Shown in pieces: positions 35,044-36,252 of a stretch of 64,000 bases of DNA. The position numbers and the translations under genes were made by a program. Numbering within the stretch: position 1 is the stretch's first letter; each line of letters begins with the position of its first letter. This DNA is from an uncultured Victivallales bacterium (GTDB taxonomy: Bacteria; Verrucomicrobiota; Kiritimatiellia; UBA8416; SLMC01). The stretch lies in the NCBI GenBank assembly GCA_964646045.1, contig CAZYAW010000088.1:239-64238 (forward strand), given 5' to 3'. The notes beneath the pieces are model-generated. The model saw only the letters and a program-made list of their open reading frames with translations. It did no database searches and was not told the origin of the DNA.

Positions 35044-36252
35044 ATGGCTAAGGAAAAATTCGACCGCACGAAACCGCATGTCAACGTGGGCACCATCGGG
35101 CACGTGGACCACGGCAAGACCACATTGACCGCCGCCATCACCAAGGTGCAGTCCCTCAAGGGACAATCCGACTACGTGCCCTACGACACCGTCGCCAAGG
35201 CGTCGGAGTCGGCGGGCCGGCGCGACGCGACCAAAATTCTGACGATTGCGACCTCGCACGTCGAATACAGCACCGACAAGCGGCATTATGCGCACGTGGA
35301 CTGCCCCGGACACGCCGACTACGTCAAGAACATGATCACGGGCGCCGCCCAGATGGACGGCGCCATCATTGTGGTCAGCGCGGCGGACGGGCCCATGCCG
35401 CAGACGCGCGAGCACATTCTGCTGGCCCGACAGGTTGGCGTGCCGGCGCTCGTCGTTTTTCTTAATAAAGTGGATCTGGTCGACGACCCCGAGTTGCTCG
35501 AGCTGGTCGAGATGGAGATTCGCGAGCTGCTGACCAAATACGAGTATCCGGGCAACGACATTCCGATTATTCAGGGCGACTCCCTTTCCGCCACGCAAGC
35601 CAATTCGCCCGACGATCCCGCCTGCGAATGCATCGGCAAGCTGATGGACGCGCTCGACGCCTACATTCCCGAACCGGAACGCGCCATTGACAAACCCTTC
35701 CTGATGCCGATCGAAGACGTGTTCTCCATTGAGGGTCGCGGCACGGTCGTCACCGGTCGCGTCGAGCGAGGCATCGTCAAAGTGGGCGACACCGTGGAAA
35801 TGGTGGGATTGCGGCCGACCTCCCAAACGACGGCTACCGGCGTCGAGATGTTCCGCAAGCTCCTGGATCAGGGCCAGGCCGGCGACAATATCGGAGTGTT
35901 GCTGCGCGGAACGAAAAAGACCGAAGTCGAACGCGGCCAGGTTCTGGCCGCACCGCGTTCCATTACCCCGCACACCTCCTTCGAGGCCCAGCTTTATGTG
36001 CTGAGCAAGGAGGAAGGCGGTCGTCACACGCCTTTCTTCAAGGGGTATCGCCCGCAGTTCTACATGCGCACCACGGACGTTACCGGCGACATTACCCTTC
36101 CGGAAGACGTCAAAATGGTCATGCCCGGCGACAGCATCACGCTGACCGTCAAGCTGTTGCAGCCGGTGGCCATGGAAGAGAAAATGCGTTTTGCGATTCG
36201 CGAGGGCGGACGCACCGTGGGTGCGGGAACCGTTACGAAAATTATCGAGTAG
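35044..36252 (+). CDS. tuf: Elongation factor Tu (divergent switch I region)
   Basis: [18 protein letters not shown] and NKVD motifs, 402 aa. Switch I reads ...[18 protein letters not shown] instead of ...RGITINTSHVEY. Confidence 0.9.

Follow-up and report, generated by a model that had tools for sequence, protein, structure and literature searches.

A longer switch I loop lacking the conserved glycine in the elongation factor Tu of a Victivallales bacterium and of many other bacteria

Introduction

Can an elongation factor Tu (EF-Tu) that departs from the G2 motif of translational GTPases (trGTPases) be the ordinary EF-Tu of a bacterium? The question is raised by a tuf gene at positions 35044–36252 of a 64,000-nucleotide stretch from an uncultured Victivallales bacterium (assembly GCA_964646045.1, contig CAZYAW010000088.1, positions 239–64,238 of the forward strand); we refer to this whole stretch as the window. 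EF-Tu is the GTPase that brings aminoacyl-tRNA to the ribosomal A site. Its G2 motif, R-G-I-T-I, which we take to be the trGTPase signature of PROSITE entry PS00301, is also present in EF-1α. In the EF-Tu of the window, this motif reads K-I-L-T-I and follows an insertion of five residues. An earlier note on this DNA had called RGITI near-universal and had considered lineage-specific divergence, a second, specialised tuf copy, or an assembly error. Here we find that the gene is very probably the organism's housekeeping EF-Tu, equipped with one of two related and widespread alternative designs of switch I.

Identity of the tuf product

The gene is a single uninterrupted open reading frame (ORF) that translates into an EF-Tu of 402 amino acids. 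Its product reaches 694.5 bits against the NCBIfam model TIGR00485, well above the equivalog cut-off of 522.4, and 718.4 bits against NF009372 (cut-off 479), the latter match spanning residues 1–402. Pfam assigns PF00009 to residues 10–209, PF03144 to 233–302 and PF03143 to 306–400, which corresponds to the three-domain architecture of EF-Tu, and the best match among solved EF-Tu structures has an E value of 5.6e-203. Overall identity to canonical EF-Tu amounts to about 68–73%. The protein is eight residues longer than E. coli EF-Tu: five of these residues lie in switch I, and three form a second insertion that the alignment to solved EF-Tu places near residues 186–192. The diagnostic elements of bacterial EF-Tu (TIGR00485/PRK12735), G1 (GHVDHGKT), G3 (DCPGH, with the catalytic histidine) and G4 (NKxD) are all present. 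The only departure is at G2, where K-I-L-T-I after the five-residue insertion stands in for the consensus R-G-I-T-I. Of that consensus, the window EF-Tu keeps the Thr-Ile pair and the hydrophobic gate position; the Mg-binding threonine, on which the function of G2 depends, is thus present.

The switch I variant

Two alignment methods define the altered loop. When the protein is aligned to solved EF-Tu with HMMER, the canonical proteins are gapped by five residues between ESAGR and ILTI, and ILTI pairs with GITI. When eight canonical sequences are aligned to it with MAFFT (mature E. coli numbering), Lys64 pairs with Arg58, Ile65 with Gly59, Leu66 with Ile60, Thr67 with Thr61, Ile68 with Ile62 and Ala51 with Asp50. 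Relative to E. coli EF-Tu, the substitutions in switch I are R58K, G59I, I60L, D50A and P53S; the glycine is lost, and a new, invariant G-R-R-D stands before x-T-K. Translation and alignments thus agree with what the earlier note had read from the letters, namely an EF-Tu with KILTI in place of RGITI, in a segment five residues longer than in E. coli, that has kept the Mg-coordinating threonine and lost the glycine. Its remark that the EF-G encoded in the same window keeps RGITI is equally borne out by the translation; this EF-G scores 852 bits against TIGR00484 (cut-off 659) and has a canonical switch I.

We call the loop design of the window EF-Tu type A. Across 54 type A sequences drawn from two distant groups, the invariant residues of switch I are Tyr47, Asp48, Val50, Ala51, Lys52, Ala53, Ser54, Gly58, Arg59, Arg60, Asp61, Lys64, Ile65, Thr67 and Ile68. 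The window sequence agrees with all invariant positions of this set, and with those of 42 type A sequences from species-representative genomes of GTDB. That G58-R59-R60-D61 and K64-I65 do not vary at all across the 54 sequences shows that the insertion is strongly constrained and is not a floppy spacer.

A second, shorter design, type B, shares part of this pattern. When 42 type A, 49 type B and eight canonical sequences are compared column by column, Arg60, Asp61, Lys64, Thr67 and Ile68 are 100% conserved over all full-length variant proteins of both types; the inserted Arg60-Asp61 is therefore an invariant feature that the two types have in common. Both have lost Gly59 and, in most sequences, Asp50. 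The residue at the position of Gly59 is isoleucine in type A and threonine (82%) in type B, and none of the 91 variant sequences has lost the P-loop aspartate, Asp22. Outside switch I, the same comparison yields no position that convincingly separates variant from canonical EF-Tu, the nearest being a weak preference for isoleucine or leucine at residue 256.

Two other peculiarities of the window protein lie away from switch I. The region of the second insertion (residues ~186–199, window positions 35599–35640; three residues longer than in canonical EF-Tu) carries a conserved D-D-P-A-C-E-C with two cysteines in the consensus of the 54 type A relatives. The G5 region, just before this insertion, reads G-D-S-L in place of G-S-A-L.

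Distribution of the variant

Within its own clade the loop is the rule. The best 120 database homologs of the window protein, at 83–100% identity, comprise 114 with KILTI and five with KIMTI, all with the same insertion; where they are named, their labels are Kiritimatiellia, Lentisphaerota or Verrucomicrobiota. The closest named relatives are metagenome-assembled genomes (MAGs) of Lentisphaerae, Kiritimatiellia and Victivallales (84–89% identity). The loop is therefore not an anomaly of this genome. The sole protein with a canonical motif among the 120, P0074 (491 residues), proved to be a chimeric or duplicated ORF with two partial EF-Tu copies in tandem, which inflate its score. A similar over-long EF-Tu ORF, P0144 (517 residues), lies on a short metagenome contig. 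Both are probably assembly chimeras that inflated scores have ranked with the close homologs.

To survey other bacteria, we scanned the species-representative genomes of GTDB for DNA that codes for D-x-x-K-x-Φ-T-I-x-x-x-H-V-E-Y. This pattern is expected to pass over canonical EF-Tu, which carries arginine at the lysine position (Arg58 is invariant in the eight references). At least 120 loci matched, and the 120 listed are all tuf genes: 53 of type A, 66 of type B and one truncated copy with a type-A-like core. Type A, the type of the window EF-Tu, follows the pattern VAKAS[ED]xxGRRDx[TS]KI[LVMI]TI and is five residues longer than the canonical loop; type B follows I[AT]KGGT[VE]RDxxKTVTI and is two residues longer. 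Common to both is the core R-D-x-x-K-x-Φ-T-I.

Among the matches listed, type A carries the labels Kiritimatiellia, Lentisphaeria, Victivallales, some Verrucomicrobiota, Phycisphaerae and Sedimentisphaerales, and also Gemmatimonadota, Nitrospira, Hyphomicrobium, Rhodomicrobiaceae, Acidobacteriota, Omnitrophota, Chitinivibrionales, Auribacterota and Endomicrobium. Type B is found there under Pirellulales, Planctomycetaceae, Gemmataceae, Isosphaeraceae, Opitutales, Puniceicoccales and Verrucomicrobiia, and under Polyangiaceae and other Myxococcota, Bdellovibrionota, Elusimicrobia and two bins of the Candidate Phyla Radiation. The recurrent groups are each represented by several independent genomes. 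Flanking genes were detected at 91 of the 120 loci, and the order at every one of these is either tuf-(rpmG)-secE-nusG-rplKAJ or rpsL-rpsG-fusA-tuf-rpsJ-rplC. This primary position indicates that many groups of bacteria use the variant as their working EF-Tu.

These results refine what had been supposed about the motif. The earlier note had allowed that KILTI might be normal for the clade, and with 119 of the 120 best homologs reading KILTI or KIMTI, it is. Divergence that is specific to the lineage describes the variant only in part: the loop is the norm for the relatives of this bacterium, but the same design occurs in many phyla beyond the Planctomycetes–Verrucomicrobia–Chlamydiae (PVC) group. 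The proposed multiple alignment across PVC and other phyla, now run, finds the motif recurring and a core shared by types A and B. For EF-Tu, RGITI is accordingly less near-universal than had been assumed, given the variant in the main tuf gene of many phyla.

Some of the scanned loci have features of their own. Ten type B loci (L019, L025, L027, L037, L052, L057, L060, L088, L100 and L115) read ITKGGTVRD in switch I and have the P-loop GHxDHGKS, with serine for the Mg-binding Thr25, so that a second metal-ligand position departs from the canonical one; they come from MAGs labelled Verrucomicrobiota, Opitutales and Elusimicrobia. The locus L080, on contig JAADCS010000078.1 of a MAG labelled Thermotogota, has an intermediate-looking switch I, VAKADAKIARKDETKILTINVAHVEY, in which a canonical-like K-I-A-R is followed by an insertion K-D-E-T-K and then by ILTI. 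This sequence may show where the insertion arose, namely between Arg58 and Gly59, or the contig could be mis-binned. Two loci at which tblastn split tuf, L100 (~1131–1371) and L108 (1344–1393 and 1580–1632), contain runs of N at these places, that is, masked or unknown sequence and not introns or frameshifts.

A search of PLSDB for variant EF-Tu on plasmids returned 86 records that are 53.5–73% identical to the queries, and all eight that were translated (8/8) are canonical. Many of the PLSDB tuf records (L127–L134; NZ_LR743510.1, CP090106.1, NZ_CP119142.1, NZ_CP084075.1 and others) measure 2–5 Mb and have little or no annotation, with sizes of 2.8 Mb for Methylobacterium, 2.2 Mb for Neisseria, 2.1 Mb for Fusobacterium and 4.8–4.9 Mb for E. 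coli; many of them seem to be chromosomes recorded under plasmids. The PLSDB records served solely as reference sequences. The annotation tool RGI labels the wild-type tuf of E. coli "elfamycin resistant EF-Tu".

Authenticity and copy status

An unusual motif in a single metagenomic contig could reflect faulty sequence, or a second gene with a specialised task. The only hint of an error in sequencing, assembly or reading frame at 35215–35260 is rarity compared to textbook sequences; nothing else was found to point that way. Against it stand an unbroken reading frame, a motif that does not vary in hundreds of independent homologs, and an identical 402-residue protein on 22 contigs of several JGI metagenomes, strain variants with differing flanks among them. 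At six loci that we compared, tuf differs from that of the window by no base or by one synonymous base, and the flanks differ by insertions, deletions and single-nucleotide polymorphisms. A tuf gene conserved amid differing flanks identifies the six loci as independent assemblies of related strains. Assembly error, which the earlier note had wished to see checked, is thereby excluded, and the probability of an artefact of any of these kinds is negligible. A specialised paralog, comparable to the actinobacterial EF-Tu2/tuf3 and accompanied by a canonical RGITI EF-Tu elsewhere in the genome (for example, a stress-related or antibiotic-insensitive copy), has this in its favour: a divergent G2 motif is among the changes that occur in specialised trGTPase paralogs, of which actEF-Tu2 is one listed by Atkinson 2015 (PMC4342817), and our inspection covered only 64 kb of the genome. 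However, the local gene order, tRNA-Thr–tuf–rpmG–tRNA-Trp–secE–nusG–rplK–rplA–rplJ–rplL–rpoB–rpoC–rpsL–rpsG–fusA–rpsJ–rplC, is that of a canonical primary tuf locus and not of an accessory paralog encoded away from translation operons. In the window, fusA is followed directly by rpsJ with no tuf in between, which leaves the other classical position for tuf unoccupied, and a tblastn search of the 64 kb found no second tuf, only a weak match to the G-domain of EF-G. In addition, the product scores above the EF-Tu equivalog cut-off, the variant occupies one of the two primary positions at all 91 loci with detected flanks, and none of the best 120 homologs is of canonical type except for the chimera P0074, which stems from another organism. 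We therefore consider a specialised second copy most unlikely, and this suggestion of the earlier note is left unsupported.

The window is also represented elsewhere in the metagenomic data. Positions 32044–39252 are identical, base for base over all 7,209 bases compared, to the locus L124 (JGI 3300001336, ML7_10000148), and samples ML8, MLSed and Ga0643xxx hold strain variants that carry the same tuf.

Evolution and mosaic inheritance

Because RGITI is common to EF-G (here the EF-G of the window) and EF-1α, the variant is the derived state. The core common to types A and B argues for a single origin. In a neighbour-joining tree calculated without the switch I segment, sequences group by taxon and not by loop type, and within Planctomycetota the two types are intermingled. 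We conclude that the variant probably arose once and then spread between phyla by transfer of tuf and intragenic recombination.

A Hyphomicrobium sp. MAG (L023; JALHOF010000011.1, 104001–112000) encodes a mosaic EF-Tu, with tuf in the order rpsL-rpsG-fusA-tuf-rpsJ. Residues 1–100 of this protein are 75–90% identical to type A proteins of Acidobacteriota, Gemmatimonadota and Nitrospira, compared to 34–71% for canonical alphaproteobacteria, and the variable helix that precedes the motif takes part in this N-terminal resemblance to type A. Over most windows of residues 221–400, the relation is reversed, with 75–89% identity to canonical alphaproteobacteria and 68–80% to those same type A proteins; domain 3 is 88% identical to that of Sinorhizobium. 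This pattern suggests that the loop-bearing 5′ segment moved by recombination between tuf genes after horizontal transfer. The best 120 homologs of the Hyphomicrobium protein (88–96% identity) have the GRRD insertion in 120 of 120 cases, followed by K-I-Φ-T-I in 119 and by T-I-L-T-I in one. Among these 120 is the EF-Tu of an isolate, Hyphomicrobium sp. ghe19 (WP_339084488.1), encoded on a 4.6-Mb contig.

Proposed function of the loop

In trGTPases, the main-chain carbonyl of the switch I glycine and the P-loop aspartate bind a monovalent cation (M+), the residue after the glycine forms one half of the hydrophobic gate, and the threonine that follows binds Mg2+ (PMC4509514; PMC4342817). Tyr47, Asp51 and Thr62 of Thermus EF-Tu contact the phosphates and Mg2+ (PMC4329189). 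The contribution of M+ to EF-Tu catalysis is reported to be small (Maracci 2014, as cited in PMC4509514), and some trGTPases naturally lack the switch I glycine (PMC4342817).

With the exception of this glycine, the catalytic elements of the window EF-Tu are intact and invariant: GHVDHGKT with Val21, Asp22 and Thr26, Tyr47, Thr67, DCPGH with His90, and NKVD. Judged from these residues, switch I is most likely rewired in a way that leaves EF-Tu function normal. GTP binding and hydrolysis would proceed as in canonical EF-Tu, with Thr67 coordinating Mg2+ and Leu66 and Val21 probably forming the hydrophobic gate. The monovalent-cation site may be kept, formed by the carbonyl of Ile65 and the retained P-loop Asp22; since the ligand is a backbone carbonyl, isoleucine can replace glycine in this role. 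Inserted Asp61 could take over the water or Mg contact of the aspartate that has been lost (Asp50 in E. coli, Asp51 in Thermus, here Ala51). Finally, the basic residues Arg59, Arg60 and Lys64 are predicted to enlarge the loop surface toward the acceptor end of aminoacyl-tRNA or toward rRNA in the GTP state.

Gene neighbourhood

The features of the tuf gene and of its surroundings are collected in Table 1. The fusA ORF extends from 48675 to 50906 on the forward strand (743 amino acids) and overlaps the end of rpsG (48278–48748), and the match to the EF-G family begins at residue 57. The true start of fusA probably lies downstream of the ORF start, for example at Met33 (48771) or at a GTG near 48837.

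Table 1. Coordinates in the window of tuf, of the conserved elements in its product and of the neighbouring genes
Feature	Position	Strand	Evidence or remark
tuf (EF-Tu, 402 aa; GTP_EFTU, D2, D3)	35044..36252	+	ORF, NCBIfam, Pfam, matches to solved structures
G1/P-loop GHVDHGKT, residues 19–26 (Val21, hydrophobic gate; Asp22, monovalent-cation ligand; Thr26, Mg ligand)	35098..35121	+	Invariant in 54 type A sequences
Switch I/effector region, type A, residues 47–75	35182..35268	+	Translation, HMMER and MAFFT alignments
Five-residue insertion A57-G58-R59-R60-D61	35212..35226	+	MAFFT placement; HMMER gap 1–3 residues further on
KILTI, residues 64–68, replacing RGITI	35233..35247	+	Translation, MAFFT
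G3/switch II DCPGH, residues 86–90 (catalytic His90 = E. coli His84)	35299..35313	+	Invariant in 54 type A sequences
G4 NKVD, residues 141–144, guanine specificity	35464..35475	+	N141, K142 and D144 invariant
tRNA-Thr(GGT), directly upstream of tuf	34918..34992	+	ARAGORN
rpmG (ribosomal protein L33, 50 aa), directly downstream of tuf	36307..36459	+	Translation; PF00471 gene call, same offset in L121–L126
tRNA-Trp(CCA)	36477..36553	+	ARAGORN
secE–nusG–rplK–rplA–rplJ–rplL cluster	36716..39715	+	Pfam NusG, L11, L1, L10, L12; SecE, NusG, L11, L1 and L10 called in identical loci
rpoB	39843–43634	+	ORF-finder bounds; named by ORF size and position only
rpoC	43631–47821	+	ORF-finder bounds; named by ORF size and position only
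str operon rpsL–rpsG–fusA into rpsJ (50916–51224)	47891..51224	+	Translations

Discussion

Two other explanations accept the gene as the main tuf and concern what the loop does. In one of them, the invariant Lys64 would act as a lysine finger that fills the monovalent-cation site and pairs with the P-loop Asp22, so that GTPase activation would be independent of K+. This could account for the 100% conservation, in type A and type B alike, of a lysine at the place of the invariant canonical arginine, for the exchange of the cation-ligand glycine for a β-branched isoleucine or threonine, and for the retention of Asp22 in all 91 sequences. There are precedents: P-loop NTPases have repeatedly exchanged K+ for lysine or arginine fingers (PMC6310460), and the loss of M+ binding by eIF2γ accompanies changes at the same two positions (PMC4342817). 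However, the cation ligand is a main-chain carbonyl, for which glycine is not chemically needed (PMC4509514), and the retention of Asp22 fits a retained cation equally well. The AlphaFold2 model is not usable in the loop, and the reportedly small share of M+ in catalysis by EF-Tu (Maracci 2014, cited in PMC4509514) leaves the selective pressure for a replacement unclear. We regard a lysine finger as very unlikely. A wider proposal combines such a finger with an aspartate that replaces Asp50 into a distinct switch I: the EF-Tu GTPase centre that serves translation in a large fraction of bacteria would be independent of K+, and the loop would be an advantageous, recombining cassette that swept across phyla. 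This, too, seems very improbable to us; if it were true, the advantage might be, for example, insensitivity to toxins directed at switch I or to ionic conditions.

The other explanation turns on such toxins, and holds that the variant was kept and spread horizontally because it removes the target of switch-I-directed toxins or proteases (Lit-type), kinases or other modifying enzymes. Lit-type proteases are said, from the work of Yu and Snyder in 1994 and of Georgiou et al. in 1998, to cleave E. coli EF-Tu at the Gly59–Ile60 bond. In the alignment, this G-I dipeptide is replaced by I-L or T-V, and the patchy distribution across phyla and the mosaic Hyphomicrobium gene show a loop that has moved between lineages, as would be expected of a favoured cassette. 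Nevertheless, nothing in our data ties the variant to any toxin, and tuf genes recombine readily without special selection. Lit is a host-encoded device of abortive infection, and it is not obvious what would be gained if the host's own EF-Tu escaped from it. That the inserted residues are so strictly invariant points to a positive role in the structure, not to the mere loss of a site. We regard toxin escape as very unlikely.

The reading we prefer remains that of a housekeeping EF-Tu with a rewired switch I and normal function. Several points weigh against it. An AlphaFold2 model built from the 54-sequence alignment has an overall predicted local distance difference test (pLDDT) score of 81.5 and confident domains 2 and 3, but pLDDT falls below 50 at residues 56–71 and 88–100, the two switch regions, so the model says nothing on the shape of the loop. 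Because of this low confidence, the roles proposed for Asp61, Ile65 and the basic residues are drawn from sequence only. Neither the PDB nor the alignments to solved EF-Tu contained a structure with the variant loop, and in the literature we found no biochemical or structural data on any variant EF-Tu. The neighbour-joining tree and the mosaic analysis rest on eight canonical references and have no bootstrap. The tuf copies of this genome were surveyed within the 64 kb only. The 120 or more loci of the scan are a lower bound and give no prevalence figure for the variant across bacteria, and the taxon names are the labels that submitters gave to their MAGs, some of which have probably been mis-binned or wrongly labelled (Thermotogota, Nevskiaceae and Myxococcaceae, for example).

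How does the window EF-Tu compare with known systems? It shares with canonical EF-Tu (E. coli TufA/B, Thermus; TIGR00485, PF00009+PF03144+PF03143) the three domains, the P-loop, DCPGH, NKxD, the tyrosine and Mg-binding threonine of switch I, the gate and the operon context. It differs from it in the five-residue insertion and substitutions of switch I, the three-residue insertion at ~186–192 and the G-D-S-L. Type B proteins have in common with it the R-D-x-x-K-x-Φ-T-I-x3-HVEY core, the loss of Gly59 and Asp50 and the primary tuf locus. In contrast, they exceed the canonical length by only two residues, have G-G-T-V for A-S-E-S-x-G-R upstream and T-V for I-L before the Mg-binding threonine, and in some members have a GKS P-loop where the window type has GKT. 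The actinobacterial actEF-Tu2/tuf3 (Atkinson 2015, PMC4342817) are likewise members of the EF-Tu family with divergent sequence, but they are extra copies beside a canonical tuf and away from ribosomal-protein operons, whereas the window gene occupies the primary locus and scores above the equivalog threshold. A cation-carbonyl residue other than glycine is also found in the trGTPases eIF2γ, eEF2, EFGII, Ria1, Snu114 and aIF5B (PMC4342817). In eIF2γ, unlike in the variant EF-Tu with its 91 of 91 aspartates, the P-loop aspartate is lost as well and M+ binding is abolished.

Part of the variant may have been noticed before. In the Journal of Molecular Evolution of 2001, Jenkins and Fuerst reportedly described a unique 11-amino-acid motif in the EF-Tu of Pirellula marina as specific to planctomycetes; this motif is probably our type B. 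A literature search with motif strings and for EF-Tu indels of planctomycetes and the PVC group found no paper on the type A loop, on the distribution across phyla, on mosaic inheritance or on biochemistry. EF-Tu is used or cited by Gupta 2012 and Kamneva 2010, but the passages found give no description of the indel. The type A loop is thus an uncharacterised variant of the EF-Tu family.

For this window, the finding means that the gene is the lineage's ordinary tuf and is to be annotated simply as tuf. More broadly, R-G-I-T-I is treated as a hallmark of trGTPases, yet the primary EF-Tu of many groups carries a strictly conserved, longer loop. The patchy distribution of this loop and the mosaic Hyphomicrobium gene call for caution in the use of tuf as a phylogenetic marker or of the indel as a clade signature. 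Carriers of the variant include cultivable groups such as Hyphomicrobium and genus-level relatives of Pirellula, Gemmatimonas and Nitrospira, and these natural variants are probes of the importance of the glycine and the cation in EF-Tu and of the contacts that switch I makes with tRNA and rRNA.

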